This document shows, piece by piece, positions 4,772-59,642 of a DNA stretch of 64,000 nt. Made by a program: the position numbers and the translations under genes. The notes under the pieces were generated by a model. The model did not search any database, was not told the origin of the DNA, and saw only the letters and a list, made by a program, of their open reading frames with translations. Within the stretch, counting starts at the first letter, position 1, and each line of letters starts with the position of its first letter. The DNA comes from Nitrosopumilus sp. (GTDB lineage Archaea; Thermoproteota; Nitrososphaeria; Nitrososphaerales; Nitrosopumilaceae): assembly GCA_965224195.1 (NCBI GenBank), contig OZ245040.1, positions 1,984,001 through 2,048,000 of the forward strand, in the 5' to 3' direction.

Positions 4772-5774
4772 TACTCTGTCGAACAAATCATTTCCAACTA
4801 GTTTTTGATTTCATTCCCTCAAGCACCTGCAAACAGATTGTACAGCTCGACTTTTAATTTTAATTCCTTTGCCATGTATTTTCTTTTGTGAGCCATGACA
4901 TACTCACCAAACATCCTTTTGAATGTTGAAAACACACACTCTGCAATCCACCTGTCCCCATAGCTAACGCTGCGCTTCCACAAATCCAAATTATACGTTT
5001 GAGCCAAAACTGATTTCTTTCTCGGATAACATTTTGTTTTGAGAGATGATGTCTTTCTAACTTTGATTGCAGGCAGTGCATCTGTGTTGTGGTACAGATA
5101 TGAGAAGTTGTTTTCTGAATCATATGCGCCATCTGCCAGTACCTTAATTACATTTCCTTTGTACAATGCCTGCTGTACTAGTTCTGGCAGATGTGCAGGC
5201 ATCATGGGATGAATCATCTGTTATTTTGAGTGAAACTATTTTCTTTGATTTCACATCTGCACCAACATGAATTTTCAAGAATCCTCTCCTCATGTGCCAT
5301 TTCTGTCGCATCCATTTGTCTCTGTTTGCAGCCTTAATTCCAGTGCTGTCAATTGCCAAAATGATATCATCATCCACTGAATCATTATTCATTGATTCAT
5401 CCATCCTGATGTCAAGCTTGTTTACTCTTTTGTGGATTGATGTAAAATCAGGAACTGCTGGAATGCGTCTGGAATATGCACGAATCATTCCTTCTGTTTG
5501 TCTGAATGGTAATTCAAAATAGATTCTCGCATAACCTAGCAATTTCATAAACGAGTCAGGATAGTCAAACTTTCTACCTCTTTTGTTGTGATTCATGACC
5601 TCTAGTTCTTTATGCCAGTTATCAATAACATCAAATGACATTATGATCTTCACCATTTCTGACTAGTTTCTCATTGTATTGACTCCATTGTACCATGAAA
5701 ATAATCAGAATGTGAGATCCAAAGCTATTGTGGTGCAATGATATTGATCAGATTGTTATTTGTTTGACAAAGTA
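4772..5774 (-). mobile_element. IS5-family element, copy 1 (defective, no TSD)
   Basis: TIRs TACTCTGTCGAACAAAT / ATTTGTTTGACAAAGTA; high similarity to copy at 55482-56473. Confidence 0.92.
4819..5696 (-). pseudogene. IS5-family DDE transposase with two +1 frameshifts
   Basis: AIDSTG, KIHVG, ADGAYD, RWIAECVFS motifs split over ORFs 5144..5656 and 4819..5217; ATG at 5696. Confidence 0.9.
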
Positions 5775-43988: not shown

Positions 43989-44705
43989 CTATGCATTAAT
44001 CCTATCCCTACCACCTTTGGCAGTTCTAAAAACATTCATTCCAATAAAGAAATTTTCATGTAAAGATTCTAAGTAAATAATTTCATTCTCTGTTTCTTTA
44101 ATTTCTTTTTTAGTTACATCAGGGTTATTTTTTAATTGTTCAAGTTTTTGTTTGGTTTCTTCTAAAAATGAATCAACAGCACGTTCATAATTTGAAACAC
44201 CAGCAAATTCTGGACTAAGAACATGTTCAGGAACATAAGCAGGAGTATGATCATGATATACCTCTGCTTGTCTAGTGAGGGATTCTTGTTCATCTGCTGA
44301 AAGAATTGGTCGTGGGAAACGATCTGCTTTATCTAACCAAAATTCAGGTTCACCCATATCTCGTCTAAAAATTTCTTCGCCTTGCCTCTTGAATGTATGA
44401 TCTGATTTTACAGCTGCATCTGCTTTTACTTCAGCTGCAATTGCTTTGTATTCTTCTTCAGCTGCTGATTCTGCATCTGCTTTAGCTGCTTCTGCTTTGG
44501 CAAGAGCTTCTTTTACTGCTAGTTCTGCTTCCTCAACTGCTTTTACAGCTGCTTCTGCTTTAACAATTGCAGCTTCTGATACTTTAGATTCTTCTGCTGC
44601 CTTAGATTCTAGTTTTGCAGTTTCATCCGTAGTTGTATTTTCAGATGAAGAATCTTCAGTAGTTTTTGCATCCACTTTAGATTCTTTTTTCTCTTCAGAC
44701 AACAA
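43989..44705 (-). CDS. Hypothetical protein with Ala/Glu/Lys-rich N-terminal coiled coil
   Basis: 238-aa ORF. Confidence 0.7.
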   Translation of the reverse strand: MLSEEKKESKVDAKTTEDSSSENTTTDETAKLESKAAEESKVSEAAIVKAEAAVKAVEEAELAVKEALAKAEAAKADAESAAEEEYKAIAAEVKADAAVKSDHTFKRQGEEIFRRDMGEPEFWLDKADRFPRPILSADEQESLTRQAEVYHDHTPAYVPEHVLSPEFAGVSNYERAVDSFLEETKQKLEQLKNNPDVTKKEIKETENEIIYLESLHENFFIGMNVFRTAKGGRDRINA

Positions 44706-44838
44706 ATTTTACTAAAATTGCCTGAATTTTAATATTCTTGTGAGATTCATCGACAGTCCATTCCTTTTTCAATAATATTTTCTAGAAATTTAATTCTGAT
44801 CGATGTAAATGATATCAAAATGTAAAAAATAGAAATAA

Positions 44839-44859
44839 TGGCGCCCTCGGCGGGATTTG
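44839..44859 (-). repeat. att site: duplicated tRNA-Asp 3' end including CCA
   Basis: GCGCCCTCGGCGGGATTTG at 44841-44859 identical to 57921-57939. Confidence 0.92.
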
Positions 44860-45081
44860 TGAGATCAGTTTGACCACCTCACAGACTTGGGTGTGAACTT
44901 TGATGAATTTAACCACAAAATTTTAGTTCAAATTCAAAGAAATTTTGTTATACAGAATTAACTGATTTTAGATTTTGATGTGACTACGGTTCAAATTTAC
45001 CTCTACCATAAATAACACGGGGAATATAGGTACGACTTAACATTTTGTATTATTTTAGAGGAATTTTCGTTCTAGGAGTAG

Positions 45082-45189
45082 GATCTGCTTGAGTGGACAG
45101 AGACTCAAATTGAGACATCCAGATTTACAAACTATTCTCATGCCATACAGTACTCTGTAAGGCAATTAAAAGAAAGTGGAGAAGAGTAG
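45082..45189 (+). pseudogene. Ribbon-helix-helix protein remnant
   Basis: DLLEWTETQIETSRFTNYSHAIQYSVRQL, preceded by in-frame TAG. Confidence 0.5.
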
Positions 45190-45262
45190 AAACTCAAAAG
45201 TTTGGATTTAACAAAACAAATTTTCAATTAATGTTATTAACTTAAGAATTTATAATATATCA

Positions 45263-45841
45263 GTGGAAGAGATAAAAGAAGATAGTAAGACTTTTGATAA
45301 AATCAAGGTTTTTTATTCAGAAGATGACAAATTGAAGATTTTCGGCGAGTTGTTAAGTAACAAATCAAGTAGAGACATCATTAAGTTCTTGATTGAAAAG
45401 GAGAGGTATACAAATGAGATTGCAAAAAAATTAGAGATTAGACCAAATTTAGTAATACATCATCTAAAAAAGATGGAAGAATTAGGATTATTAGAAATTA
45501 CAGAAAAAAAAATTTCTAAAAATGGTAATAAACATAAATTTTACAAAATGATTCCAAATGTGTTCATTTCTCCAAATTATTCAAAACAAGAGTTTGAAAA
45601 GAAAGTAATGTTTAAGAAAATTTTCAAACAAGGATTAAAGTTTGCAACAATTGGATTAGTGGCTAGTGCGGTTTGGATGGCTGATGTAGTAAAGTTAACA
45701 AATACCAAAGAAATTTATCCTGTTCCATTTGGAACTCAAACTCAACAATTAGATCCGTTAATTCCAGCTTTAATTATAATAATTATTGGTTTAGTTCTAG
45801 AGAGAATTTTTAGTTTAAAAAAAAAGAAAAAAAGGGGTTAG
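45263..45841 (+). CDS. ArsR-like wHTH regulator with C-terminal membrane anchor
   Basis: LSNKSSRDII...EIAKKL...HHLKKMEELGLL; two hydrophobic segments and a poly-Lys tail. Confidence 0.8.
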   Translation: MEEIKEDSKTFDKIKVFYSEDDKLKIFGELLSNKSSRDIIKFLIEKERYTNEIAKKLEIRPNLVIHHLKKMEELGLLEITEKKISKNGNKHKFYKMIPNVFISPNYSKQEFEKKVMFKKIFKQGLKFATIGLVASAVWMADVVKLTNTKEIYPVPFGTQTQQLDPLIPALIIIIIGLVLERIFSLKKKKKRG

Positions 45842-46794
45842 TTGTTGTTGAACATTTCAACATCTGATTGATCAACTACTGTTGTGGTTTGCCCACAGAA
45901 AGAACCTTGAGAACCAGTGGCACTGAAATTATCAGTATCTCCAGTATGGTATATTGGATCGAAATTTAGATCACCCTGTAGCTCATTACAGTCACTATGT
46001 AGATCATAGGTTTCAACTGCAACTAATCCTACTTTCATTGTAGTAGATGAATATACAATGTATGAGTCATTAGCTGCTGAATAATCATAGTTTTTCATAG
46101 ATATTGTCCAATAGTTATTAGATTCACTAATTGTTCCTCTAAGTCTATCATCATAATCTGCATCTTCACAAGGAGTTCCCCAAGCATTTCCACCTACATA
46201 GACTAGGGCATAAGTTACCCAATCATCACCAGCATCACAATAGGAGCTATATCCATGTTGTAATACAGGTTGCAAGATAATACTTGATGAACCAGTTGGC
46301 TGAATTGCTGGGAATGAGAAATTAGTTCCACCATCAAAATCTGTTGGTGCATCTGGTACATTTCAATATGCTCTTAGATATGAAAAATCATTGTTTGCAC
46401 TGCTTTTGTGTGCAACTTGATTGTATCCATCACCAGCTTCTGCTAATGGAATAGTGAATAGATTCGTTAATGTTTGAATCCAATCAAATGACGTTTTGAT
46501 AGTTTCTGATTTTTCTGCTTTTTCTATCATAGCATCGAGGTCTAATACTTTCTCTTTTGTTTCAGGATGATCTCTGTAGATAGGCTCCATTTGCTTTATT
46601 TCACTTGGTTTAACCCATCCGACACCAGGATACAGTTTGTAGCCTGCTGCTAGTTTTAGATCTCTTTCTTCGTTTGGTATTGTTAAACTATCAATAACTT
46701 TTTCTGCTTGTGCTGTCTGCATTCCAGAGAATGAGGCAAACAAAGCAATTGTTAAAGAAGCAAACAATACTGTTTTGATTGTTTTTGATGTCAT
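45838..46794 (-). pseudogene. Secreted protein, possibly glutamic-peptidase (G1)-like, split by a TGA at 46363-46365
   Basis: ORFs 46363..46806 and 45838..46275 share a frame; readthrough gives YLRAY*NVPDAP...FPAIQP...ILQPVLQ. Confidence 0.7.
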
Positions 46795-46824
46795 TGATAT
46801 ACACAAAACTATTATGTTAATAAA

Positions 46825-46852
46825 AATTAGTTCAATTTGGATTGAACTAATT
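46825..46852. promoter_or_regulatory. Perfect 12-bp inverted repeat AATTAGTTCAAT-N4-ATTGAACTAATT
   Basis: Directly upstream of the minus-strand TTTATTAA box of the secreted-protein gene. Confidence 0.6.
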
Positions 46853-47124
46853 CTTTAGTAATAATATAATATATCATCGTATGATTAACTGTACAACGAA
46901 GAACATAGAAAATCCAATTGGAAGAATTATCAAAAGTCTAGTTTTCAATTACTCAAGCTAAAATTATAAGGTTCATAAGTACTTCAAATCTTTAACTTCT
47001 TCAAAGGAATTTGAAGAGTTAGTTTAACATCCTACAAGATCAAACCCAGTAGAGTTTAAACAATGTGGAACTGTTGAGTTCCACATTTTTGATAGTTCTT
47101 AAAAATCAAAAATGGTGTAAACAA

Positions 47125-47190
47125 ATGTCTAGAACCGTTTCTGCACGCATATCTACAAAAATGCATAATGAATTAAGAGAAAGATTCTAG
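47125..47190 (+). pseudogene. Truncated ribbon-helix-helix gene
   Basis: MSRTVSARISTKMHNELRERF*. Confidence 0.4.
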
Positions 47191-47265
47191 GAATATTGTA
47201 AAGAATATGTGATTTACTAAGAGAATTTTATGATCTTTTATTATTGATAGTTACAAAATATCATC

Positions 47266-47367
47266 ATGAATACTGCACCAATTTGGTCTAGCCCAAAGTG
47301 TTCTGATTGTAAAAGAATTAGATGCAGTAAGGGGTGTAACTGTGATTGTCATTGGAATAGAAGATAA
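47266..47367 (+). CDS. 33-aa Cys-rich peptide
   Basis: MNTAPIWSSPKCSDCKRIRCSKGCNCDCHWNRR*. Confidence 0.5.
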   Translation: MNTAPIWSSPKCSDCKRIRCSKGCNCDCHWNRR

Positions 47368-47910
47368 CCCATACCATTCTATCAAAAGTTACTGCAGAAA
47401 GGGTTCGAAAATTCTCAAAGTCAGTTACTAACAAACTATCAAAATTTCAATAATCCTAACTATGATTATTGGGAACATCCACGCACAAAATAATCATTAT
47501 TGTTGTAGATTTGTAAAACATCAACAATTATTCCACAACATCACTCCACGCATGGAACTCTGTGGATGCGGTGTTTTTGTAAACTTCCATGCGTGGTGAC
47601 CATTAACTTCCATGCGTGGAAAGTGTGTTTTGATGTGTTATGAGTTGACGTTTTATTGTTGACGTTTACAACAGTTGATGTCAACACTATCCAAACGTCC
47701 ACGCGTGGACATATTTTCATCTTTTGTTGTAGTTTTCCAATAATCCTAAATCTCATAATTAGGATTATTGTGGATTAGATGGATGATACAATAGATCTAA
47801 CTCTTATCCATTCTGTCAATAATTACTGCAGAAAGGGTTCGAAAAATTTCAAAGTCAGGCACAACTAAAATATCATATTTCCAATAATCATAACTAGGAT
47901 TATTGGAAAT
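47356..47910. repeat. Two about 120-bp imperfect direct repeats ending in palindromes and enclosing short repeated motifs
   Basis: TTACTGCAGAAAGGGTTCGAAAA exact at 47389 and 47823; CAATAATC..GATTATTG palindromes at 47448, 47738 and 47882. Confidence 0.85.
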
Positions 47911-47970
47911 TGAGTATTTCTGGTATATCTTAATCTTGAAAATTTTTGAGGCTTTTCTGTAGAAAAAAAA

Positions 47971-48102
47971 TTATTGAGATACAAATGTTTGACAAGTGCA
48001 CTCTGAACCATCAGATAGAGTTTTGGAACATTTGCCCTCTGATGGATGGTCTTTTCTATAATGTGGACAACTGGTGTTACCACATTCGTCATAATCTCCC
48101 AT
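47971..48102 (-). CDS. 43-aa Cys/His-rich zinc-binding peptide
   Basis: MGDYDECGNTSCPHYRKDHPSEGKCSKTLSDGSECTCQTFVSQ*. Confidence 0.55.
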   Translation of the reverse strand: MGDYDECGNTSCPHYRKDHPSEGKCSKTLSDGSECTCQTFVSQ

Positions 48103-48212
48103 AATTATACAACAAATTTAATATATTTAATTTTGATCTTGCAATAATAGTCAAGTCATAATCAACATAATATCACTAAATAGTTTGTAACAAAATACAA
48201 TCGATTCTTTTT

Positions 48213-49172
48213 TTGGTTAGATCGCTACAAAATCTGATATTGTCAGATAATACAAACATTCATGAGAAAAGCGATAGAGAGGTCTTGATGGTATTATTTG
48301 AAGACCTGCAATCAATCAAAGAGAAACTAGGAATAGAAGAAAAACGATTTACTGCAATAACGAATTATGAAGGTACAATATCCCACTATGAGGAATTTGC
48401 CAAATCTGAACTAAATCTGAATTCGGGTACAATAAAGAACCATGTAGGTGCTTTAAGAAAATTCTTGGAATTCTGCAATGGTAACATCACAGAAGATATG
48501 GTAAAAAATTATCTTGATTCAATGGAACAATCAAGCCAAACAAACCAACTCAAAGTACTAAGACGATTCATTAGAGATTATCTAAAACTAGGCAACTGGA
48601 TAAACGAGATATCATTCAAGACACAGAAAACCAAACTAAAAACTCAGAAACTACCAAACAATGAAGAACTATCCACATTTTGTACAGAACTTGAAACATT
48701 GCAGATGCAGCTAGTATTTTTTATTTGCTTTAATTCTGGTTTGAGGGTAAATGAGACGTTACAGATAGAGACAGACAAGATGGATTATTCATTAAACTGT
48801 ATTGATGTATCAGAGGTTCACACAGGTGATACAAAATCATCATGGTTTGGATTCTTTACAACTCAAACAGCAGAGTATCTTGAGAATTACACAAGTAACA
48901 ATTATCTTGATGGCAAGATATTTGATGTAACATATGACCAGGTGTATGCAGAATTCAAGAGAGTAAGTGCGATTACAGGGATAGAACTAACACCAAAATC
49001 ACTAAGAATGATTTTTGTTGAGAGATGTATTGATGCCAAAATTGATAAAAATGTGATTGATATTTTTGAGGGTTGAATCCCTAAAGGTGTCCAGTCTAAA
49101 ATTTATCGTAATTATTCACCTGAGAGATTAAAAGAACATTACAATAAAGTTGAAGAATTATTGATTTTGTAA
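48213..49172 (+). pseudogene. Second tyrosine recombinase with premature TGA at 49074-49076
   Basis: SGLRVNE, TK, PKSLR; after the stop IPKGVQSKIYRNYSPERLKEHY carries the probable catalytic Tyr. Confidence 0.85.
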
Positions 49173-49345
49173 GTCAATCTTAAAAAAAAATATCATATTG
49201 AACAATCTAATTAGATTCATGAATTGATAAAAAGACATATTGATTTACTTTTTTAATTATCATCTTAGAATGGATTAGAATTTAACTAATAGTCAACACC
49301 TTGTAAAATTATAACAAATAAACTATAATCATGTAATAGTATTAG

Positions 49346-50212
49346 ATGAAAATAAGAAATAGTATTTTACATCATCCTTTTGCTACAATGATTGCCTTAC
49401 CCATCATGGAATTTGCAATAATTTGGGGTATTTTATTTCAACCATCTTCTTCAGATATTTCTGAATATCAAATAGAAATAACAAATGCAATAATCACCTC
49501 ACTGATAATTGTTTTTTGTGTTTTGATATTGTCACTTTTTGGCTCGAAAGTAATTGGTAAAACAATTGAAGTAATTTATGAGAAATTAAAGTCAAAAGAT
49601 TTTATCATGACTTTTGATTCTTATCGATATGCATATCCAATTTATTTTATTTTTCTTATAATATTGAGTATGATTATTGTAATCAATTCGAATGTAAATA
49701 ATATTCAATTAGAAGATAGAATTAAATTATTTATTATTTTTCTATGGATGCATTGCATGGGTACAGTTATGATACATTCCAATAGACATACTACATTACT
49801 CTTACAAAATAAAAAAAACTGGTTTTTGGCAAAAGCCAATTTTGAACTAACAAAAAATGCAAAGACTGAGAATAACAAGTTACGTTATTTCACTAGAGCA
49901 TTGTTAGAACTAGATAATTTTTATAAAAAAAATTGTGGCTTACAAATCAAAATAAAAATGAAAAACATGATAACAAATGATTTTGTAAAAAATATTGAGC
50001 ATAGTGAAACAATGAAAAAATATCAAACAATATTTGATTGTGAGAAAATATCTTGTTTGCGAATGCAACTACAAAATAATTTTACTAAAAAAGAAGAATG
50101 TTTTGCAGCACATCAACCACAACCAAATTATCAAAAAATTTCAATAGTAATTGCATTATTTTTGTTAGGGATAGTGGGAAGTAAATTTTTGATTGATTTT
50201 ATATTTATATAA
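49346..50212 (+). CDS. Low-GC multi-TM cargo protein of unknown function
   Basis: 288-aa ORF with about 5 hydrophobic segments. Confidence 0.65.
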   Translation: MKIRNSILHHPFATMIALPIMEFAIIWGILFQPSSSDISEYQIEITNAIITSLIIVFCVLILSLFGSKVIGKTIEVIYEKLKSKDFIMTFDSYRYAYPIYFIFLIILSMIIVINSNVNNIQLEDRIKLFIIFLWMHCMGTVMIHSNRHTTLLLQNKKNWFLAKANFELTKNAKTENNKLRYFTRALLELDNFYKKNCGLQIKIKMKNMITNDFVKNIEHSETMKKYQTIFDCEKISCLRMQLQNNFTKKEECFAAHQPQPNYQKISIVIALFLLGIVGSKFLIDFIFI

Positions 50213-50240
50213 AAAAGATGTGTGTAGATAATAAAAAAAT

Positions 50241-50575
50241 CTACTTTGCTAACACTGTTTGTTTTTTCATCAGTTCTATTCTATTGACGTTGATTGTATA
50301 CTTGTCACGTCCATAAGGCTCAGGTAGTATTGGTATATGTTGACCTACCATCTTTATCGTGTCATTTCCAAATTTGTCAATCAGTGAATTTTTTGACTGT
50401 TTGTTGAGTGTCCATACTCCTATGGTCTCTTTTTTGTCATTACACTGGACTCTTGTCTTTACAGTACTACCAAACCCGTTATCAGGCATCTTTGGCTCCT
50501 CAAGAATGATTAATTTTGTGATGCGATTCTCTTTTACAAAATCACCGTCTAGTTCTCTATCTAATTCTATTTCAT
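50241..50575 (-). pseudogene. Small mobile-element protein (possibly OB-fold/SSB-like), start apparently frameshifted
   Basis: WTLNKQSKNSLIDKFGNDT..MVG motif; frame extends upstream to IELDRELDGDFVK, one base off ATG 50575. Confidence 0.45.
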
Positions 50576-51524
50576 TTCACCCCCTCTTATGTCACACAAG
50601 TCACATACGATATGGTGTAATTCAGGATCATTATCATGCATATTCTTTAGAGAATATGGCAAGATTCCCTTTTTGTAGACCTCTTTGAGTTTGTAATTAA
50701 TTAATTGTCCAGATACAGAGTTTCCAAAATAATCTAAAAGTATTTTTTCACATTCTTGTAACGTTAATTTTTTTACATTAACCAAGTATGGACATAGAAC
50801 TAGAGCAAATATTCTTTTTTTATCATCAGTGATTTTGTTTTGTAGGATTTTTTCAATGTATTTTATTTTACCTTGATTAGTAAAATTTCCATTATACCTT
50901 TGTTGTTCTAGTTTATGCAAGTGTGCTAAAAATGGCAGATTATTTACTTGTGGTCTAATGCCATTCCATTCAGAATAATTTTAACCTGTGATTCTTCTTT
51001 TGATTTTCCATATAACAATGATTTTTTGTTGTATGAATATGGCACTCTAATCATACAGGATTTTAAACTTGGATGATTTGCACCATCACATTTTGAATTT
51101 GATAGATATCTTTCTGCAAACTGTAAGAATTTTTTAGAATATCAAAGATTTGTTTTTGGTGTAGTGTTGTATTTGTAAATGAAATTATATCTATTGGTTG
51201 AATTACTGCATAACCATTACCAGTGTCTAGAACCAGAGGTATACCGTTAATCTCTTTGTGAAATAGTGCTAATGTTTCATTTAGTGCTGTCTTATCATCT
51301 AGATCTACAAATATCAAATTAGGTTTTTCTTGATTAATTTCCTCTAGTCCAAAAGCGGATAATCTGCAATCTATTAGATTAGATTTTACAAAAAATTCTA
51401 GTGCTTCTGCTTTAGAGTAAACTTGTACCTGTTTGTTTTCTGTAGCTAGTGTTGATACGGTTCTTGGGAATTTGCTCTCAAAATGATTCAAGAGGTAATC
51501 TAACCCATATTCTATATCTATCAA
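50567..51524 (-). pseudogene. AEP primase domain fused to a PriX-like domain, two frameshifts
   Basis: IFVDLDD, TGNGY, MIRVPYSYN (alternative frame), YIEKILQ...LCPYLVNVKKL. Confidence 0.7.
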
Positions 51525-53739
51525 GATTTAGTCCTCGCCTCTTTTTGGTCAAAATATTGAATAGAATGACCTAGTTTTTTATGGAAATTTAATATGCTCT
51601 CTTTGTTTATTCCTCTCTCATCAATTCCAAATTCACCAGCATTACAGGTTGTACATTTGAAATGAGTGTATTTCTTAGATCTATTATCTGACGAATTTTT
51701 ATCATTTTTTGTGACTGATTTTTTATTTTTTATTTTTTTATCAGAGGTAGGCAAAGTGCACGTGTCAGACGTGTCAGCGTGCCAACCCTCTTTTTTGTGA
51801 CTAGATTTACTATTTTGTGACACGTGCATACTATTTTTCTTTGATTTATCCGTGTCAGTAGACGTGTCAGTCTTTGAGGATTTTTTATCATTTTTGTCTG
51901 ATTTGTTAGGTGACACGTTGACACGTGCACCATTTTTCGTAGACGTGTCAATATTTGGGTCATTTTGTGCCTGATTTTCACTAGTGACACGTTGACACGT
52001 TGACACGTCTACTTTACTTTCTAATCTGGATTGATTAGGTGTGCTAGAAGCTATTTTCAGAATCAATGAGCCACGCTTGAATTTATTATCCCTTGAATTG
52101 TATCTGTGACTTGAAATTAGATATCCAGAATTTCTAAATGATTCACTGAATCGGGTTAGTTGGCCAGATAGTTTTGATTTTGTTTTTGGAAATCTTGAAA
52201 GTCTGGATTTACGATCTATGTTTTTACTATCTGCAACTTGTACAGACTGGTTATAAAGTTCATCAATTGTAATATCAAAAGGTGTTTTTTTATTCTTAAA
52301 TAAATCTAAAACAATGTCAATTATAGGCCATGTATCAGATGCACCTAGAGAATTAGAATCTAGATTTTGTTTGTATGCTTCAAGAAATTCAAAGTTATCA
52401 AATCCCAAACTTCTAGAAATACATTCACCAAAAACTATAAAATCTGCCATTCTTTCCTTAGATGTTATTTCTTTTTTTACACCATCAAAAATATTCAATG
52501 TGTTTGATAGAGTGTTAAAACATTGGTCTAACAAATATGGGACTAGTGAATTTATTTTTTTATCAAACTCTTCTTCTGTAAGTCTTTCATTTTTTGGAAT
52601 GTATTTGGTTTCATAAAAAACAGACCTCTGCATTAAATCTGGGTATTCTATATTTGGTGTATCCCATTTAGAATAATTCTTGTCTGAATTTTTAGTATAA
52701 TTTCTTTTGAATCTTGATATAACTCTCTTTTGATATGTGTGTGTCCTGTAACTGCACGGCATAGATTATCACTAACTTCATGGTCAAAATAAGAAATATT
52801 ATCAAAGTTTGACAGATATCTATTATACAGATGAATATTCAAATCATCAATCTTTTTTGGCATGCTTGCTAAATTCTCAGGGCTTGGGTCAATGATTTTT
52901 TTGATCGTGCTAGTCGTCGTACTCTTAGAACTGCCTTGCTCACCATGAAAAATCATGACTGGTATTGGATAGGATTCTAAGAATAATGATACTAGATGGA
53001 CTTTGAATAATAATTTATTCTGCTGTTGTATTTTTAATAGATTGCATAGTTCGTCTAGAGGATTTTTTGATTTTGATTTTTTTGGTTTGACCTGTTCTAA
53101 TGGACTTGATTTTCTTCTAAATAGAGGGGTATTGTGGTCTATCTTCTCTATTGAATAGCCGTTTTTGGTAATTTTCACTAGTTCGTATTTATCATTACAT
53201 AAATCATAAAAAATCTCATTCTCTAGAAAAGCAACTCTACTGAAGATATTCTCAATTTTAATCTCATTTACTATAGAATGAGATGTAATAACAGATAATG
53301 CAGTTTTGTATAATTCATCACTAAATATTTCACCTGTTGCAGATTCGTAAACTGATTTAATCCATTGTACAGAATCCCATGAGCCAACCTCTATGGTTTT
53401 GTAATGGTTGTTTATCTTAACTAGCGCATATACTCTGTTATGGTCTCCTGCACTTCTAACTTTTTTTATTATTTGTGATTGCGCAAAATCATAAACTTGT
53501 CTAACATTGTTTGCATTATTATCATCATCTTTTGAGATTTTAGATTTTTCATATTCTGGATTATCTTGTTTGGAATTAAATTTTTTCCATTTACATTTTC
53601 CTAAATACTTGTTTTTCTCAATGTGTTCTAGTTGCACTTTAGAACCCTTAATCATGGAGCCTTGTTTCTCGTGTTTTAGATTTGTACAGATTATCAGATT
53701 ATCATCAGGGTTTTTCTTATCTGATTTTTTGACTACCAC
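51521..53739 (-). pseudogene. P-loop ATPase / putative replicative helicase, frameshifted near 52660
   Basis: GEQGSSKS Walker A, FDN, RELY, ILNGI then PDLMQRS in the next frame; RMADF. Confidence 0.75.
51761..52007. repeat. Cluster of 11 TGACACG/CGTGTCA heptamers, candidate replication origin
   Basis: Exact copies at 51761, 51770, 51818, 51851, 51863, 51911, 51919, 51944, 51985, 51993, 52001. Confidence 0.8.
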
Positions 53740-53966
53740 TAAACTTCAACTCCAGAAAAATCAGACAATACATCTACAAACCATAAAGGATTACGATGGT
53801 CATTTACAAAGTCAATCAGTCCTAGTGAAAATGCGGTTTCTTGTTTTTCCTTATAACCGTGGTCATATCTTAGATGCCTCTTTATCTGTGAAAGGTCAGA
53901 TGTGACAGGTTTTGTATGAAATTTGCATCCAAAAACAGGGCATATGCGTGGTATTATGAGGCTCAA
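53739..53966 (-). CDS. Small C2H2-type zinc-finger protein
   Basis: CPVFGC...RHLRYDH. Confidence 0.6.
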   Translation of the reverse strand: MSLIIPRICPVFGCKFHTKPVTSDLSQIKRHLRYDHGYKEKQETAFSLGLIDFVNDHRNPLWFVDVLSDFSGVEV

Positions 53967-54115
53967 ATAGAGTCACCTGTGGATTTGTGATGTTGTGTAA
54001 TATGGTATCTTAGGGCATATTGAGAGACAAATCGTTTAGATCTGCCTTTGATTTTTTTACATATATGACAAAGAATTAGATTAGAATGCTTTTTTGGTGA
54101 GATAATCTTACTCAT
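53963..54115 (-). CDS. 50-aa C2H2-type zinc-finger protein
   Basis: LCHICKK...ALRYHITQHH; overlaps next gene by 4 bp. Confidence 0.55.
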   Translation of the reverse strand: MSKIISPKKHSNLILCHICKKIKGRSKRFVSQYALRYHITQHHKSTGDSI

Positions 54116-54163
54116 AATATACACTTCCTAAGATGGGATTTGTAAAACTTGAAAGAAAGTCCG

Positions 54164-54517
54164 TCAAAACATATCTTTCAAGTATTTTTTTAATTTTATA
54201 ATAAAAAATAGAGTTTCTAATATCACTGAAAGCAATACTAGAACTCTATGGTGTAGGTTTGTTGAACCATTACAGTTGCACTCAACATGTTTCACAATTT
54301 CATCAGTTCTGTATCTAGATTCTCTAGCAGATGAGATATTATCTCCACTGAGAAATTGATTGAAAAAAATAATGATACCTGTAACAGTATCATTATTTTG
54401 GTGTAGGAGTTGCCCATTCATTTCTACAAGTTTGCAAATTTGTCTAAGATGTTTCTGAATTTTCAGCATCTGAGATTTCTCTCTTATTACAAATTGAACT
54501 AATGAGTTAGAATTCAA
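54164..54517 (-). CDS. Hypothetical element protein
   Basis: 117-aa ORF co-oriented in leftward operon. Confidence 0.4.
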   Translation of the reverse strand: MNSNSLVQFVIREKSQMLKIQKHLRQICKLVEMNGQLLHQNNDTVTGIIIFFNQFLSGDNISSARESRYRTDEIVKHVECNCNGSTNLHHRVLVLLSVILETLFFIIKLKKYLKDMF

Positions 54518-54528
54518 GAGTTATCCTC

Positions 54529-54717
54529 TTATGATTTTTGTTTGATTTCTTTTCTAAGTACAGTTAGGTTTTTTCTTGAAAGTTGTACTAGCTGTTTTAG
54601 ATTGTATTGTTGGTTTTGTTTTTTGTAGTGTAGAATAATGGATGTTATGATTTCTGATTTGTAGATTCCAATTTCTTGTATGATTTTCTTTTCATATACA
54701 GTAAGTTGAAGATTCAA
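54529..54717 (-). CDS. Hypothetical element protein
   Basis: 62-aa ORF co-oriented in leftward operon. Confidence 0.4.
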   Translation of the reverse strand: MNLQLTVYEKKIIQEIGIYKSEIITSIILHYKKQNQQYNLKQLVQLSRKNLTVLRKEIKQKS

Positions 54718-55043
54718 TTTTGTAAAACCTCTTCTTTAATTTTAGTTTCAGAAATGAATCCATCAAAATCAGGGTCATGTTTACAAGAATCACAAACTAA
54801 GAATTCATATCAAGAATCATTCAAAATACCTACAAGTTTAATTTTTTCTGTTTTATGTTCACATGTTCTGTGTATGATCGAACTCATTATTTTGAACCGC
54901 CTTTGGAATTTAGATAAAAGTTCAAAATAATATCAAACTGTTCTACTTGAGATCTTTTTTCAGTTTTACATACAGAATCAAATTTTTTCTTTGCTTTTGG
55001 TCGTATGTTTATACCATCATAAGATTTTATTTCTACCAATATT

Positions 55044-55059
55044 TACATACTAGTATGTA
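55044..55059. promoter_or_regulatory. Perfect 16-bp palindrome TACATACTAGTATGTA, candidate operator
   Basis: Between a TATA-like run (55061-55070) and the first TTG (55039) of the leftward operon. Confidence 0.55.
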
Positions 55060-55481
55060 GTATTATATATCTGTAGTCCTACCAAAATTTACTTAACACA
55101 AACATTAACAAAAGTCTCAATATGTAAATATATGTAGATTTTAGATCATAAAATATGGGAAATAGAGATAATTGGTCATATATCCAAATGCCCAAAACAG
55201 TGTTTGAAGAAGTTGAAAAAATGTTAAAATCTGAAGAATTCACAAAAATAGGAATTTTTAAACCTAAAGATATTGCTCTTATTCTATTTAGAGATTTCAT
55301 AGAAAATGGTTCAAGCATATTAGACATCACATCAAAAGTAAAAAGATTACAAATTGAAGTAGATACAACAAACAATATACTATACATGATAACTCAAAAT
55401 AAACTAGATAGGAAAAAATTTGAAAACATAAACCATGAACAAACAATAGACAAGGAAACTATTCTAAATGATGATAATATC

Positions 55482-56473
55482 TACTTTGTCGAACAAATAA
55501 CAATCTGATCAACTTTATTTCATAACAATAGCTTTGGATCTCACATTCTGACCATTCTCATGGTTAACTGGAATCAATACAATGAAAAACTAGTCAGAAG
55601 AGGCGAGATCATAATGTCATTTGATGCTATTGATAACTGGCATAAAGAATTAGAGGTCATGAATCACAACAAAAGAGGTAGAAAGTTTGACTATCCTGAT
55701 TCATTCATGAAATTATTGGGTTATGCTAGAATCTATTTTGGATTACCATTCAGACAAACAGAAGGAATGATACGTGCATATTGTAATAGAGTTCCAGCAG
55801 TTCCTGATTTCACATCAATCCACAAGAGAATAAACAAGCTTGACATCAAAACTGATGATTCCATTGGAGATAATAATGAAATCATTTTGGCAATTGACAG
55901 CACAGGAATCAAGGTTGCAAACAGGGGCGAATGGATGAGACAGAAATGGCACATGAGGAGAGGATTTCTAAAAATCCATGTTGGTGCCGATGTCAAATCA
56001 AAGAAAATAGTTTCACTGAAAATAACAGATGATTCATCCCATGATGCTGCACATCTGCCAGAACTGGTACAGCAGGCATCACAGAAAGGAAATGTAATCA
56101 AGGTTCTAGCTGATGGCGCATATGATTCAGAAAACAACTTCTCATATCTATATCACAACACAGATGCACTGCCTGCAATCAAAGTTAGAAAGACATCATC
56201 TCTCAAAACAAAATGTTATCCGAGAAAGAAATCAGTCTTGGCTCAAATGTATAATTTGGATTTGTGGAAGCGCAGCGTCAGCTATGGGGACAGGTGGATT
56301 GTAGAGTGTGTGTTTTCAACATTCAAAAGGATGTTTGGTGAGTATGTCATGGCTCACAAAAGAAAATACATGGCAAAGGAATTAAAATTAAAAGTCGAGC
56401 TGTACAATCTGTTTGCAGGTGCTTGAGGGAATGAAATCAAAAACTAGTTAGAAATGATTTGTTCGACAGAGTA
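55482..56473 (+). mobile_element. IS5-family element, copy 2 (intact, 992 bp)
   Basis: 17-bp TIRs TACT(T/C)TGTCGAACAAAT; 8-bp TSD ATAATATC at 55474-55481 and 56474-56481. Confidence 0.95.
55560..56426 (+). CDS. IS5-family DDE transposase (IS903/ISH1-like)
   Basis: NWNQYNEKLVRRG, AIDSTG, ADGAYD, RWIVECVFS. Confidence 0.93.
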   Translation: MVNWNQYNEKLVRRGEIIMSFDAIDNWHKELEVMNHNKRGRKFDYPDSFMKLLGYARIYFGLPFRQTEGMIRAYCNRVPAVPDFTSIHKRINKLDIKTDDSIGDNNEIILAIDSTGIKVANRGEWMRQKWHMRRGFLKIHVGADVKSKKIVSLKITDDSSHDAAHLPELVQQASQKGNVIKVLADGAYDSENNFSYLYHNTDALPAIKVRKTSSLKTKCYPRKKSVLAQMYNLDLWKRSVSYGDRWIVECVFSTFKRMFGEYVMAHKRKYMAKELKLKVELYNLFAGA

Positions 56474-56609
56474 ATAATATCAATAAACAAGTTAAAATTA
56501 TTCACAAGGACAACATACCATATTGTACACATGATAAAACTAACAATTGCATTCATACGTATTATATGATAATACTATCTAAATTAATTAATTTAAAAAA
56601 AATGAAAGA

Positions 56610-57878
56610 TTAATTTTCATTATACTTCTTAAGTAATCTAATTTCTCTTTTCATTTCATTAAATTCTTTTTCTGATTCTTCTTCTAAGTTTTTCATTCTT
56701 TCTTGTAGTAATTCTTTTTCTTCTCGTTCTTTCTCTTCTAATTCCATTGCAGTTTGAAGGTCTAAAGGTTTTCCACATTTTGAACAAGAATTAGATTCAG
56801 GTGGATTTGGCATTTCACAAATATTACAAATCTTTGGTGCTTTTGGTTTATCTTCATTATTAGATTCAATTCCAAAATGTTTCAAGATAGCGTTATCGAC
56901 ATCAGAGTCTGTCAGATGAGTATATCTATCAGGCATCTTTGAATCACCTACCCAGCCATGTCTTTTCGTCATTTGTGCTTGAGTCATATAATTAGCGGCT
57001 TTAGTTGCTGCACTATGTCTAAATAAAGTAAAATGTATTTTTTTGGTAAATCCAGGATGTTTTCTTTGAGCATTTTTAGCAGATCTAATCAATACCTGAC
57101 GTGCAGCAGAATAAGTCAAAGGTTTTCCATAATTATTTTTTGTAAGTTGTGGCCATAATGGAGCATCAGAATTATTTTTGAGAGGATGATTATTCATCCA
57201 TAATGCTAATTTTGGTGCAGCCTCAATAATTCTAATTGGTCTTTGACCTGTTTTACCATCCACCTTTAAAATAAATCCATATTTGTCTTGTGATACATGT
57301 TTGATTTTTAAATTCAAAATTTCACCAGCCCTAGAACCTGCATCTATTGCACAATCAATTAATGCTTCATTTCTTGGATTTCTATTACATCCATCCAAAA
57401 GTTTCAATCTATCATCAGAAGTCAAAAGATCTTCTCTAGTCAAAGAATTTGAAACTTTTTTTATTTTGATGTCTTTGGTCTCTATTGGATCACCAACACT
57501 ATCTTTACTTCTACTTCCAAGTTTCAACCATCTAAAAAATATCTTTAAAACTTTTTTATGATCATGACTTGAATGGGTCTCTTTACCTCTTGGGTCTGAA
57601 TAAGTATCTACAATATTTTTTACTAGTTTTGCAATATCAAATTTTGTTACATCATTCCAATTTTTTTCTAACATTCTACTCAAATTCAATAAAGTTTGAA
57701 TATGCTTATGTCTACCAGCCTTAGAAATTTGTTCTTGAATCATAACCATATCATAATTAGTGATTAAATCTAAGTTTTCTGCACTAAATTCTTTTTTTAT
57801 CAAATTGTATGTAGATTTAATTCTACGATCATAATCATAAATTGAAAAACTATCTGATTGTGATGTTCTTTGTTTCAA
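56610..57878 (-). CDS. Tyrosine integrase with C-terminal zinc ribbon
   Basis: GSRAGE, DGKTG, LFRHS, RHGW, DRY; CNICE...CSKCG; begins next to the tRNA-Asp 3' end. Confidence 0.92.
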   Translation of the reverse strand: MKQRTSQSDSFSIYDYDRRIKSTYNLIKKEFSAENLDLITNYDMVMIQEQISKAGRHKHIQTLLNLSRMLEKNWNDVTKFDIAKLVKNIVDTYSDPRGKETHSSHDHKKVLKIFFRWLKLGSRSKDSVGDPIETKDIKIKKVSNSLTREDLLTSDDRLKLLDGCNRNPRNEALIDCAIDAGSRAGEILNLKIKHVSQDKYGFILKVDGKTGQRPIRIIEAAPKLALWMNNHPLKNNSDAPLWPQLTKNNYGKPLTYSAARQVLIRSAKNAQRKHPGFTKKIHFTLFRHSAATKAANYMTQAQMTKRHGWVGDSKMPDRYTHLTDSDVDNAILKHFGIESNNEDKPKAPKICNICEMPNPPESNSCSKCGKPLDLQTAMELEEKEREEKELLQERMKNLEEESEKEFNEMKREIRLLKKYNEN

Positions 57879-57921
57879 TGAGTAGTGTAGGTAAAAATAG
57901 GGATTTAAACAAGATTATGAG

Positions 57922-57996
57922 CGCCCTCGGCGGGATTTGAACACGCGTCTCAGCCGTGACAGGGCCGAATTCTAGACCGGGCTATACTACAAGGGC
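57922..57996 (-). tRNA. tRNA-Asp(GTC), integration target
   Basis: CGGCC-CTGTCAC-GGCTG anticodon arm; 3' end duplicated at 44841. Confidence 0.93.
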
Positions 57997-58092
57997 ACAA
58001 ATTGTTAGAGTCAAAATGCCAGATTAAAAGTTTCTGTCACAACAAAATCTTTTGTAAAAGACTAAATTATACAATTAAGGCATTTTTTACGA

Positions 58093-58166
58093 GGGTCTAT
58101 GGCGCAGCCAGGTAGCGCACCGGACTTTTAATCCGGTTGTCAAGGGTCCGAATCCCTTTAGACCCG
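58093..58166 (+). tRNA. tRNA-Lys(TTT)
   Basis: GGGTCTA...CCGGA-CTTTTAA-TCCGG...TAGACCCG. Confidence 0.9.
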
Positions 58167-58184
58167 CTCTCTATTCTTTATTTA

Positions 58185-59642
58185 CTAAATTACTGCTTTA
58201 ACTTGCTTTTTCAAATCATCAATTGCAGCATTAATTTTGTTTTCTCTTTGTAACACATTAGATCTGTACTGATTAATTTTTTGAGTTCTATCAGAAATCA
58301 TTCTTTTTTGTTCATCATATCCTGAAGAACCAAAAGACTTTCTGTCCTTAAGAGATGAAACAACGGTAGTAGAAGATATGATTTTTAAGACAATCTTATG
58401 GTCAACTTTTGTGTCAGCCACAGATTTTTTAATTTCAGACAAGGTTAATTTTGAAATAGGTTTTTTTGAATCATATGCCAGTTGAACTAGTATTCCTGAA
58501 ATTTTATGGATCACTCTAAACGGAATTCCTTCTTGAACTAATTTTTCAGCAATGTCTAATGCAATTAGATTACTTGACTCTGTAACTTTTTTCATTTGTT
58601 TCTCATTTACTTTCAAAGTTAGAAGAATTGATTTTAAAATTAATAATGCACTGATAGAAATTTTTGATGTAGACCAGATAGATGATTTAATTTGTTGTAA
58701 ATCTCGCCCATATCCAGATGCCAATCCTTTAACAGTTGTTAAAATTGCAGTTAGATTTCCAATGACTTCTGCTGTTTTACCTCGTGTAAGTTCTAAAATA
58801 TCAGGATTCTTTTTTTGAGGCATCACACTAGATGGAGATGTAAATTCATCTGATAGTTCAATAAATGAAAATTCAGAAGTAGACCAAATTACAAAATCTT
58901 CAGAAATTTTACTAAGATTAGTCATCAAGATAGAAATCATTGCCACATATTCTGCTACAAAATCCCTGGTACTTGTTGCATCAATTGAATTTTCAACCAA
59001 ACCATCAAAGCCCAACATCTTTGCAGTGCTATGTCTATCAATAGGAATACTTGTTCCTCCAACAGGACCTGCTCCAAGTGGACTTTGGTTTATTCGTTCA
59101 AACGTTCCAAATAATCTTTCAAAATCTCGTGTCAAAACATCAGCATGTGCTAAAAGATAATGAGAAAAAAGACCTGCTTGTGCTTGTTGAAGATGAGTGT
59201 ATAGTGGCATGATTGTTTTTTGGTGGTTTTTAGCCACGGATACAAGGGCTTCAATGGTATCTAAAAGACAATTACAAATGATGTTGATATCGTCTCTTAT
59301 TTTCATTCGAATATCTAAAACAACTTGATCATTTCGAGATCTTGCCGTATGCATTTTTCCTCCACTGGCCATTCCAGCTTTTTTTATCACCAATGTTTCA
59401 ATTAGCTCATGAATATCTTCTGCGCCTGATGAAGCATCAAATTTTTTATTTTTCAAACTCTCTAAAGCAGTCAAAATTTTTTTGACATCATTATTTGTTA
59501 TGATATTTTGTTGAAATAACATCAAAGCGTGAGCTTGGCTTCCAAGAATATCATAAAGTGCAATTTCAGAATCATCATTAATTGATGAAACATAATCCAA
59601 AGTGATATCACTCAAATCAGTACCAAGACGTGAACGATACAT
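58185..59642 (-). CDS. argH: Argininosuccinate lyase
   Basis: HTARSRNDQ, YTHLQ, SSVMPQKKNPD. Confidence 0.96.
   Translation of the reverse strand: MYRSRLGTDLSDITLDYVSSINDDSEIALYDILGSQAHALMLFQQNIITNNDVKKILTALESLKNKKFDASSGAEDIHELIETLVIKKAGMASGGKMHTARSRNDQVVLDIRMKIRDDINIICNCLLDTIEALVSVAKNHQKTIMPLYTHLQQAQAGLFSHYLLAHADVLTRDFERLFGTFERINQSPLGAGPVGGTSIPIDRHSTAKMLGFDGLVENSIDATSTRDFVAEYVAMISILMTNLSKISEDFVIWSTSEFSFIELSDEFTSPSSVMPQKKNPDILELTRGKTAEVIGNLTAILTTVKGLASGYGRDLQQIKSSIWSTSKISISALLILKSILLTLKVNEKQMKKVTESSNLIALDIAEKLVQEGIPFRVIHKISGILVQLAYDSKKPISKLTLSEIKKSVADTKVDHKIVLKIISSTTVVSSLKDRKSFGSSGYDEQKRMISDRTQKINQYRSNVLQRENKINAAIDDLKKQVKAVI

Follow-up and report, generated by a model that had tools for sequence, protein, structure and literature searches.

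Members of the pRN family of Sulfolobales, such as pRN1 and pSSVx, are small replicons that combine a primase with a superfamily 3 (SF3) helicase, carry small DNA-binding regulators upstream and can integrate in tRNA genes. Satellites of the P4 type and phage-inducible chromosomal islands (PICIs), 10-15 kb in size, have an integrase at a tRNA attachment (att) site, a divergent regulatory region, and a primase/helicase near an iteron origin. In the Thaumarchaeota, cryptic integrated elements (CIEs) have been described that target tRNA 3′ ends and encode archaeo-eukaryotic primase (AEP) and superfamily 3 helicase replication proteins without viral or conjugative hallmarks, with a median att length of 17 bp and a median size of 17 kb (Krupovic et al. 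2019; available sections of PMC6563490). Here, a 13-kb insert is described from a Nitrosopumilus sp. genome (GenBank assembly GCA_965224195.1, contig OZ245040.1, positions 1,984,001 to 2,048,000 of the forward strand; this whole stretch of 64,000 nucleotides is called the window). It is likely to be a cryptic integrated element with a plasmid-like replicon, which entered the 3′ end of a tRNA-Asp gene and is now decaying in place.

Like the pRN plasmids, the element has a replication system made of a primase and an SF3 helicase, has small genes for DNA-binding regulators upstream and stands integrated in a tRNA gene, and the model of an intact relative of its primase matches the pRN1 primase weakly. 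Unlike in those plasmids, primase and helicase are encoded separately, the primase resembles RepB′ of RSF1010 more than it does the pRN1 protein, and its helix bundle scores as PriX rather than as PriCT-1. No PlrA or CopG family match was found with Pfam or NCBIfam, only a ribbon-helix-helix-like match below cut-off, which sets the element apart from pRN-type replicons. With P4 and the PICIs it shares the integrase at a tRNA att site, the divergent region, the primase/helicase with iterons and the 10-15 kb size range. What separates it from these satellites is that its replication genes are broken, that it has no known helper, and that genes for packaging, capsid remodeling or helper sensing were not detected; none of the open reading frames (ORFs) of the element has a PHROGs 'head and packaging' match, and a packaging or capsid-redirection module of the P4/PICI type is thus missing from what was searched.

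The element fits the class of cryptic integrated elements known in Thaumarchaeota, as an earlier note on this DNA, made by a model from the letters of the window, had suggested. It is an att-flanked insert that is absent from relatives, carries a tyrosine integrase and has no hallmark genes; its size (13 kb against a median of 17 kb), its att length (19 bp against 17 bp) and its integration at a tRNA 3′ end agree with the described CIEs, and, as in CalSub-E1, AEP primase and superfamily 3 helicase are encoded by separate genes (available sections of PMC6563490). To that extent the element is ordinary for its class. It differs in that the sole tRNA-Asp case in the table of that survey is a 140-kb Nitrososphaera integrative and conjugative element with a different att, and in that their description of CIEs does not include a RepB′-like AEP-PriX fusion, iterons within the helicase linker, or a conserved second recombinase with palindromes; unlike the CIEs described there, the window copy is also inactivated (PMC6563490). 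A full-text literature search for thaumarchaeal elements with these features returned only PMC6563490 as relevant, and within the literature covered the family defined by the AEP-PriX primase, the linker iterons and the second recombinase seems to be undescribed as such.

Integration into the 3′ end of tRNA-Asp

Two exact copies of the 19-bp sequence GCGCCCTCGGCGGGATTTG are present in the window (attL and attR, Table 1) and bound an insert unit of 13,080 bp. A second exact match was reached in none of 100 dinucleotide-preserving shuffles, so the att duplication put forward in the earlier note is well founded. The right-hand copy forms the 3′ end of the tRNA-Asp(GTC) found by ARAGORN, which ends in ...GGGCGC followed by TCA and thus has no encoded CCA. 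At the distal copy, CA comes next on the tRNA strand and completes a CCA (tgg at 44839-44841). By a rough script count, CCA is encoded at the 3′ end of 11 of the 46 tRNA genes of this genome.

To the left, the insert is flanked by a glutamyl-tRNA reductase gene and a 238-aa gene, and to the right by tRNA-Lys and an argininosuccinate lyase gene. Used as a query, the left flank was recovered from 26 of 41 genomes, the window's own counted, and 11 related loci were fetched for site comparison, making 12 genomes with the window's own. Nine of the 11 are empty sites, in which the flank is followed directly by a 78-nt tRNA-Asp with CCA and then by tRNA-Lys. Four of these nine were aligned base by base (flanks 91-82% identical): each corresponds to the left flank of the window up to the repeat and to the tRNA of the window from the repeat on, with CCA encoded. 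Because the four empty sites match the left flank joined to the tRNA, the insert arose by integration into the tRNA-Asp 3′ end, and because the 78-nt tRNA-Asp of the relatives encodes CCA, the distal repeat copy is the displaced original 3′ end. Both the reading of the retained CCA as the mark of the original end and the expectation of an empty tRNA-Asp site in related genomes, each raised in the earlier note, are borne out by this comparison. In the proposed event, a tyrosine integrase would have recombined a 19-bp attP with attB in the tRNA-Asp 3′ end.

Both of the two non-empty loci, G009 and G021, have insert DNA at the same tRNA. G009 contains a related 15.6-kb element between two exact copies of the same 19-bp att. 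In G021, about 5.5 kb lie between the 238-aa gene and a 78-nt tRNA-Asp, with a single att copy and, adjoining the tRNA, a fragment matching integrase residues 1-76. Insert DNA is therefore found at the tRNA-Asp/tRNA-Lys locus in 3 of the 12 genomes, window included, in three states of preservation. The base composition of the insert (GC about 0.24-0.36) is not distinct from that of the nearest flanks (0.30-0.34), the host itself being low in GC. An Rfam search of 44500-58300 (E<=0.1) returned only two tRNAs and two sub-threshold hits outside the element. Compared with the window, the G021 locus (L056, G021:C1:298500-314500) also has about 6.9 kb more between tRNA-Lys and the argininosuccinate lyase gene, which may reflect a second insertion next to tRNA-Lys.

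Helicase, iterons and primase

The gene that the earlier note called an ATPase is, on the predicted fold of an intact relative, a D5-like superfamily 3 helicase. No Pfam family match was obtained for it. Its 5′ piece (ORF 52648-53739, 363 aa, including Walker A) has relatives in 11,599 representatives at E<=0.001 (1.84 billion representatives scored), and essentially all of the matches listed end at query residues 359-363, while the proteins that were hit run on for a further 200-370 residues. The alignment of a 730-aa relative, P0001 (57% identical), with the window switches frame at about 52659, and the 3′ continuation is a 413-aa ORF at 51521-52762. The lesion consists of one missing base just after a conserved ILNG motif and before a PDLxxR motif; in related genomes both parts form one frame of up to 868 aa. 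The protein is laid out as an N-terminal domain, a P-loop core, a helical domain, a disordered linker and a C-terminal zinc-finger-like domain. Among 13 relatives scanned, four are fused to an N-terminal Prim-Pol domain and two to a DnaG/Toprim primase.

An alignment of 43 helicase sequences has invariant K271, D283 and N313, a near-invariant N357, and R337/R371. The AlphaFold model of P0001 (predicted local distance difference test, pLDDT, 79.9) was compared with known structures by Foldseek, and the matches included the helicase part of African swine fever virus PrimPol (E=2.4e-11), vaccinia D5, mpox E5, SCCmec Cch and the phage NrS-1 helicase, all between E=1e-8 and 2e-11. The P-loop core, Walker A and B motifs, sensor Asn and D5-type fold that characterize D5-like SF3 helicases were all found. 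Searches by sequence were far less informative: among solved structures an NrS-1 primase chain was hit (E=0.019), and a profile of the family matched P-loop segments only. The helicase family is present in 22 of 301 family genomes (here and in the further counts among these genomes, the window's own is included). A single-protein search for related loci in genome contigs and viral contigs found nothing, but alignment-based scans did find loci. A tblastn search of 50,697 phage records with P0001 returned only one Microbacterium phage, held as two records.

Within the helicase gene lies a cluster of 10 copies of the 8-bp iteron TGACACGT/ACGTGTCA, and 10 of the 11 occurrences of its 7-mer core GACACGT/ACGTGTC in the window fall inside the cluster. 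It is the top 8-mer cluster of the window; 80 shuffles gave a maximum of 2-4 copies per 300 bp, which confirms the association of iterons with this gene in the earlier note. The cluster maps to residues 567-678 of the P0001 model, which have pLDDT <50 and connect the helicase body to the C-terminal zinc-finger-like domain. Different iterons occupy the same position elsewhere, with six copies of CCCTTAGC in G009, seven of ATCCTCAC in G042 and eight copies in an IMG/VR contig, and G078, which has a different helicase core, has repeated DNA at the same place. Because element-specific iterons at a fixed place beside an initiator resemble replication origins, the cluster is, by analogy, a putative origin.

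The IMG/VR contig, L030 (9254 bp), encodes the C-terminal part of a helicase of the same family, with eight ATCCTCAC iterons at 822-1045. The 341-aa ORF after the iterons matches the terminase large subunit (phrog_2, E=3e-15). Judged by its genes, L030 is a putative head-tailed virus, and the helicase and iteron module would thus also circulate in viruses.

Next to the helicase stands the primase gene, which is likewise split. The 3′ piece (ORF 50567-50920) matches Pfam PriX at E=2.5e-13, and the 5′ piece (ORF 51063-51524) has no family match. Both PriX scores lie above their cut-offs (PF18689, 50.6 bits against 25; NCBIfam primase_PriX, 60.5 against 50). Relatives comprise 120 single proteins of about 317-323 aa that are annotated with PF18689 only, and two of them, from Nitrosopumilus/Nitrosarchaeum, bear the NCBI name 'DNA primase noncatalytic subunit PriX'. 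The alignment of intact primases of about 320 aa with the window is spread over three frames, as the window lacks one base in an A6 run at 51130-51135 and another at about 50976.

The model of an intact relative, P0158 (pLDDT 94.5), matches the PriX structures 4wyh and 5of3 over its C-terminal third (TM 0.80-0.83). Over the whole chain, the best Foldseek match is RSF1010 RepB′ (3h20, E=6.9e-5, prob 1.0), followed by weaker matches to the pRN1 primase-polymerase (3m1m, E=0.016; 9aam, E=0.071), and to the CRISPR-associated Prim-Pol (CAPP) and the cyanophage S-2L PrimPol. An alignment of 58 sequences has invariant or near-invariant D80/D82, G108/G110/Q115, D153/H157 and R166. In the RepB′/PolpTN2 families a Gln replaces the His of motif II and motif IV has a conserved Arg, and PriCT domains are related to PriX (available sections of PMC5862659). 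The motifs of a RepB′/PolpTN2-like AEP (PrimPol-PV1) are found in the intact relatives, on which this assignment is judged, the window copy being frameshifted twice. As in RepB′ and the PrimPol-PV1 supergroup (Kazlauskas et al. 2018), an AEP domain with the motif II Gln and the Arg motif is followed by a helix bundle and is encoded on integrated mobile elements; unlike RepB′ as covered in the available sections of that study, the protein is archaeal (Nitrosopumilaceae) and its bundle is PriX (PF18689), not PriCT-1 (PMC5862659). Here the PriX-like helix bundle forms part of an AEP fusion protein instead of a separate non-catalytic subunit. Given the RepB′-like fold, the motifs and the PriX match, the intact gene type is therefore a predicted catalytic AEP primase with a fused PriX-type bundle, which is broken in the window copy.

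The primase is rarer than the helicase, with a family member in 7 of the 301 genomes. No similarity to the Pfam Prim-Pol models was detected, and a sequence search of solved structures with the N-terminal piece gave nothing useful. A single-protein search of viral contigs found no related loci, and tblastn with P0158 against the same 50,697 phage records found no match. Among 80 primase-encoding metagenome loci, not all of which are whole contigs, none had a terminal direct overlap of at least 15 bp, and no free circular form was thus seen.

Intact versions of the primase and helicase genes are found in G078, in G275 and in the marine metagenome loci L057 and L058. The 11.4-kb insert of G078 lies beside a 3-hydroxyacyl-CoA dehydrogenase gene, where synteny is continuous in the genome of the window, and its two ends share a short TAATGTATTT. 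It encodes its own 353-aa integrase, a helix-turn-helix (HTH) protein, a DUF5615-like protein, a zinc-finger protein, a helicase of 729 aa and, overlapping the helicase stop, a primase of 322 aa, followed by homologues of the 82-aa and 288-aa proteins of the window element, a 311-aa second recombinase, palindromes, a rhodanese-like gene and a 91-nt tRNA. No packaging or capsid genes were found in this intact 11.4-kb element. The order in L057 and L058 is integrase, zinc finger, intact helicase and primase, as in the window element; among 34 metagenome loci of at least 6 kb, a helicase of this type adjoins the primase in 8, and an integrase homologue is present in 6.

The elements of G009 (L025:2943-3033) and G078 (L051:15819-15909) carry copies of the 91-nt tRNA that differ at 2 of 91 positions. 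This tRNA (Rfam, 58.3 bits) has a variable arm of about 18 nt as in tRNA-Leu/Ser, a loop CUGAAAA and the anticodon GAA (Phe). A similar 83-nt tRNA gene is found in the genome of the window at C1:507533-507615, beside a normal tRNA-Phe and full Leu/Ser sets, and the window element itself has no long-arm GAA tRNA.

Second recombinase, lesions and remaining genes

The second tyrosine recombinase, here called rec2, was identified in ORF 48213-49076 by PF00589 (27.7 bits against a cut-off of 27.1) and by a PHROGs integrase match (E=3.6e-14). In tblastn, the 312-aa rec2 of G009 aligns through the stop in the window at 70% identity; the TGA stands at an Arg codon of G009, and about 30 C-terminal residues are lost. 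The lost tail begins IPKGVQSKIYRNYSPERL... and, on a reading of its motif, presumably holds the catalytic Tyr. The second recombinase of the earlier note is therefore present as a gene, and its inactivation by a TGA had been overlooked. Members of the rec2 family occur in 13 of the 301 genomes, often within a few kb of the helicase (G000, G009, G042, G130 and two G249 contigs).

Upstream of rec2, 102-nt direct repeats occupy 47374-47475 and 47808-47909. A 22-bp palindrome, AATAATC-N8-GATTATT, has only two copies in the 2.07-Mb genome, at 47449 and 47883, and one copy each in the G009 and G078 elements. In an alignment of the three elements, site A and site B (an 11-9-11 palindrome) are invariant islands amid diverged sequence. 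The palindromes would be target sites of rec2, and the pair a multimer-resolution module, a reading favored because the window, G009 and G078 elements each also have a separate edge integrase; that of G078 is of a different, distantly related tyrosine-recombinase type. By NCBIfam, rec2 scores 70.7 bits against a cut-off of 220 for archaeal XerA and does not class as XerA, and the sites associated with it have 7-8-7 and 11-9-11 arrangements, not the dif-like 11-6-11. The possibility that rec2 is the integrase of a nested second element was considered and rejected, since G000, G009 and G078 each combine a variable edge integrase with a conserved rec2.

The two 22-bp sites of the window are in direct orientation, 434 bp apart, inside the 102-nt repeats, and bracket three copies of AACTTCCATGCGTGG (47582, 47605 and 47694). 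Recombination between them would delete or circularize the intervening segment.

The window copy thus has one frameshift in the helicase, two in the primase and one TGA stop in rec2. These lesions were checked in Logan contigs of run X1 (depth 461), run X2 (depth 94) and run X3, the latter from another study. With 0 differences and 0 gaps, contigs match the window over 44500-55481 (X1) and 44724-55473 (X2), both also over 56474-57950, and an X3 contig matches 51064-52165 with 0 differences, covering the A6 site. No indel is present at any of the four lesions in contigs of these runs. The agreement of X1 and X2 excludes a consensus or long-read homopolymer error and leaves a strain-specific state. 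Programmed frameshifting was considered and is unlikely, as the reading frames of the relatives run uninterrupted through all three positions and a homopolymer stands at only one of them. The replicon of the earlier note is thus right as to its mobile-element gene set; because helicase, primase and rec2 are broken, the window copy should be seen as a remnant in decay and not as a functional replicon.

Contigs of four runs contain no 57920-44860 joint, no empty-site joint across the element and no circle junction, bearing in mind that contigs drop rare forms; joints in run X4 with sides of 20-21 nt in AT-rich sequence were disregarded. A 2380-nt contig of run X1, at a depth of 10.4 against 461, covers window positions 44762-44881, spanning attL and including 22 nt of the element, with 11 differences, and may come from a minor related strain with a related insert.

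Table 1. Features of the element and of its integration site, in window coordinates
Feature	Position	Strand	Remarks
attL, displaced original tRNA-Asp 3′ end	44841..44859		exact 19-bp repeat; alignment with four empty sites
ArsR-type winged-helix protein, 192 aa, hydrophobic C-terminal half	45263..45841	+	Pfam HTH_5, E=2e-9
Two ORFs, 145 and 147 aa	45838..46806	-	147-aa one with hydrophobic N-terminus; variable cargo
Non-coding region upstream of rec2	47200..48212		site A 47448-47471, site B 47736-47771, second A-like site 47882-47905
Second tyrosine recombinase rec2, pseudogene	48213..49172	+	TGA at 49074-49076
Hydrophobic 288-aa protein	49346..50212	+	60% identical in G078
82-aa protein	50241..50489	-	downstream of primase in G078 and G275, 76-77% identity
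AEP primase (predicted) with C-terminal PriX-like helix bundle, pseudogene	50567..51524	-	two frameshifts
D5-like SF3 helicase (by predicted fold), pseudogene	51521..53739	-	frameshift at about 52659; Walker A GEQGSSKS
Iteron cluster, putative replication origin	51760..52010		inside linker-coding part of helicase gene
Two C2H2 zinc-finger proteins, 75 and 53 aa	53739..54124	-	CxxC...HxxxH patterns
Small leftward ORFs, 117, 62 and 50 aa	54164..55039	-	50-aa ORF conserved in G009
Divergently oriented ORF, 3′ end replaced by insertion sequence	55155..55508	+	homologue 131 aa in G009
IS5-family insertion sequence	55474..56481	+	body 55482-56473, transposase 55560-56426
Tyrosine integrase, 422 aa, C-terminal zinc ribbon and charged tail	56610..57878	-	Pfam PF00589, 42.4 bits
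Present tRNA-Asp(GTC), attR 57921-57939	57921..57996	-	3′ end element-supplied, without encoded CCA

The edge integrase matches PF00589 above the cut-off of 27.1 bits over model positions 3-170 of 172. With 81% identity to the 421-aa integrase of G009 and no internal stops, it is apparently intact. Homologues at E<=1e-30 occur in 66 of the 301 genomes, and in 11 of 16 loci scanned they adjoin tRNA genes (labeled His, Glu, Thr, Ser, Phe, Cys and SeC); the 16 were drawn from 18 loci, two from genomes flagged unpublished being excluded. The genome of the window has an integrase paralogue at C1:1798161-1799366, 43% identical and with an internal TAG, that starts 70 bp from tRNA-Glu(CTC) (1798016-1798090), and a partial one at C1:1663105-1663719. 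These two paralogues outside the window are probably further decayed integrated elements.

The gene beside the integrase, taken for a regulator in the earlier note, is instead the transposase of an insertion sequence (IS) of the IS5 family (NCBIfam transpos_IS5_2, 250.5 bits against a cut-off of 140, E=2e-74). The IS ends in imperfect inverted repeats of about 17 bp, identical at 16 of 17 positions, and is flanked by an 8-bp target duplication, ATAATATC, at 55474-55481 and 56474-56481. With 10 near-full copies in the genome, four of them at >=99.6% identity, it has all the marks of an IS5 family member. A 12,227-nt contig of run X2, at the same depth of 94 as the element, runs from 44724-55473 straight on to 56474-57950 and lacks the IS. 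Run X1 contains both forms (joint depth 145 against 461), and its contigs cover the IS about 34 times as deeply as the element. The IS-free X2 contig and the X1 depths show that the insertion is recent and polymorphic, and activity of the IS5 family is ongoing in this culture or population. The window contains a further copy of this family, 91% identical, at about 4772-5774 (C1:1988772-1989774).

The IS-free allele of the divergent ORF truncated by the insertion would encode 152 aa. Among the small leftward ORFs, the 50-aa one has a ribbon-helix-helix-like match below cut-off (NCBIfam BfmA N-terminus, E=0.016). The operon of small zinc-finger genes seen in the earlier note is recovered as two C2H2 genes upstream of the helicase, at 53963-54124 and 53739-53966, the latter overlapping the helicase start. 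They match Pfam zf-C2H2_6 weakly (E=0.003), and homologues stand upstream of the helicase in G009, G078 and metagenome loci.

On the other side of the replication genes, the 82-aa and 288-aa genes occur in the same order in G078 and are therefore family genes, not random cargo. The 288-aa protein has no family match in Pfam, PHROGs, NCBIfam or PADLOC, and its ESM Atlas score of 0.83 is below the informative range. The attL-proximal 2 kb, with the ArsR-type protein and the two family-less ORFs, is not common to the relatives and represents variable cargo: no homologue of the ArsR-type protein is present in the G009 or G078 elements, and the 145-aa and 147-aa ORFs have no match in Pfam, PHROGs, NCBIfam or PADLOC. 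PADLOC gave no defense-system match beyond a generic HTH similarity of the ArsR-like protein. No capsid, terminase, packaging or VirB4/VirD4-type conjugation gene was found in 21 element ORFs with PHROGs and Pfam or in 18 with NCBIfam, in line with the absence of capsid and conjugation genes reported in the earlier note; the Pfam scan also took in three flanking host genes, and very divergent proteins could escape such family searches.

Competing explanations and meaning of the family

A model of how such an element would work can be drawn from the intact relatives. The edge integrase would integrate and excise the element, and the C2H2 zinc-finger proteins, possibly together with the ribbon-helix-helix protein, would regulate the leftward operon. 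The D5-like SF3 helicase would recognize element-specific 8-bp iterons inside the linker-coding part of its own gene, the RepB′-like AEP primase with its PriX-type bundle would prime synthesis, and rec2 would act on the upstream palindromes, most likely resolving multimers. The window copy would have lost autonomous replication and may at most still be excisable; excision is conceivable because the integrase and both att sites are intact.

Several observations weigh against a decaying integrated replicon as the explanation of this locus, or limit it. Runs X1 and X2 belong to a single study, are possibly the assembly's own data and do not represent independent strains; slippage is conceivable at the one frameshift that falls within an A6 run; and the split proteins could retain partial function. 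Neither an excised circle, nor an empty-site contig joint, nor a free circular relative was seen in the material searched. The roles proposed for the iterons as an origin and for rec2 as a resolvase are argued from position and conservation. The G009 element is also damaged, with a helicase frameshift further downstream, three transposase (IS) fragments and, in its primase, a TGA where the conserved N-terminus should begin and no start codon there. Identity between the window and G009 is 42% for the helicase and 81% for the integrase, so the family is mosaic, and an 'intact relative' serves as a model rather than as an ancestor.

The earlier note had inferred a satellite-like replicon in need of a helper, and the corresponding explanation is that of an active satellite of an archaeal virus, dormant in tRNA-Asp, excised upon infection by a helper, replicated from an origin of its own and packaged into helper capsids in the manner of P4, PICIs or pSSVx. 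Its satellite-like order of integrase, divergent small regulators, primase-helicase and origin, the lack of capsid and conjugation genes, and the occurrence of the helicase and iteron module beside a terminase-like ORF in L030, by which the module would circulate in viruses, all fit such a life cycle. We nevertheless consider it improbable, since the genes for helicase, primase and rec2 are disrupted, PHROGs and Pfam yielded no small terminase, capsid-size or packaging gene, the phage-record searches were empty for the primase and gave a single Microbacterium phage for the helicase, and the intact 11.4-kb relative in G078 also lacks packaging genes, with no helper identified. An integrative plasmid accounts for the missing capsid genes no less well than a satellite does and, apart from this lack, the satellite explanation has no positive support. 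A provirus remnant, in which a structural module was deleted and integration and replication genes were left, could likewise draw on the L030 arrangement, and on both the decay of the window copy and the smaller remnant at the same site in G021. This origin is doubtful, because neither att site is damaged and the two copies are identical, relatives of 10-11 kb that are themselves intact (G078, L057) share this compact order and lack structural genes, and no fragment of a capsid, portal or tail gene was detected with Pfam or PHROGs.

A further explanation holds that the element is a fully functional integrative plasmid and that the lesions are assembly errors. One frameshift does stand in the A6 homopolymer, and such genomes are often assembled from long reads, but separately built contigs of X1 and X2 match the window across all four lesions and a contig of X3 across the A6 site, long homopolymers are absent from two of the frameshift sites, and in rec2 a substitution created the TGA; errors of assembly are thus very improbable as a cause. 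A cryptic integrated element with a plasmid-like replicon, decaying in the 3′ end of tRNA-Asp, accounts best for these observations.

The G078 element and the L057 and L058 loci could further belong to an undescribed family of Nitrosopumilaceae integrative replicons, with the window copy, whose integrase, att sites and iterons are intact, being excisable and replicable in trans by an iteron-matched relative or virus, although we regard this extended proposal as speculative and rather unlikely. The traits of the family may be linker-encoded iterons that change with the helicase, the AEP-PriX primase, a conserved rec2 with palindromes and, in two members, the long-arm GAA tRNA. If replication in trans by an iteron-matched partner were true, the window copy would be a satellite of a plasmid or virus. 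For annotation, the analysis means that at least 120 'primase non-catalytic subunit PriX' proteins of these archaea consist of a predicted AEP domain and a PriX-like bundle and are located on mobile elements.

Marine ammonia-oxidizing archaea have few characterized plasmids or genetic tools. A compact replicon with a putative origin, primase, helicase and integrase/att system is raw material for a shuttle or integration vector, for which one would start from the intact relatives and not from the window copy. The tRNA-Asp/tRNA-Lys hotspot, with three inserts at different stages of decay, provides a small natural series of element erosion.

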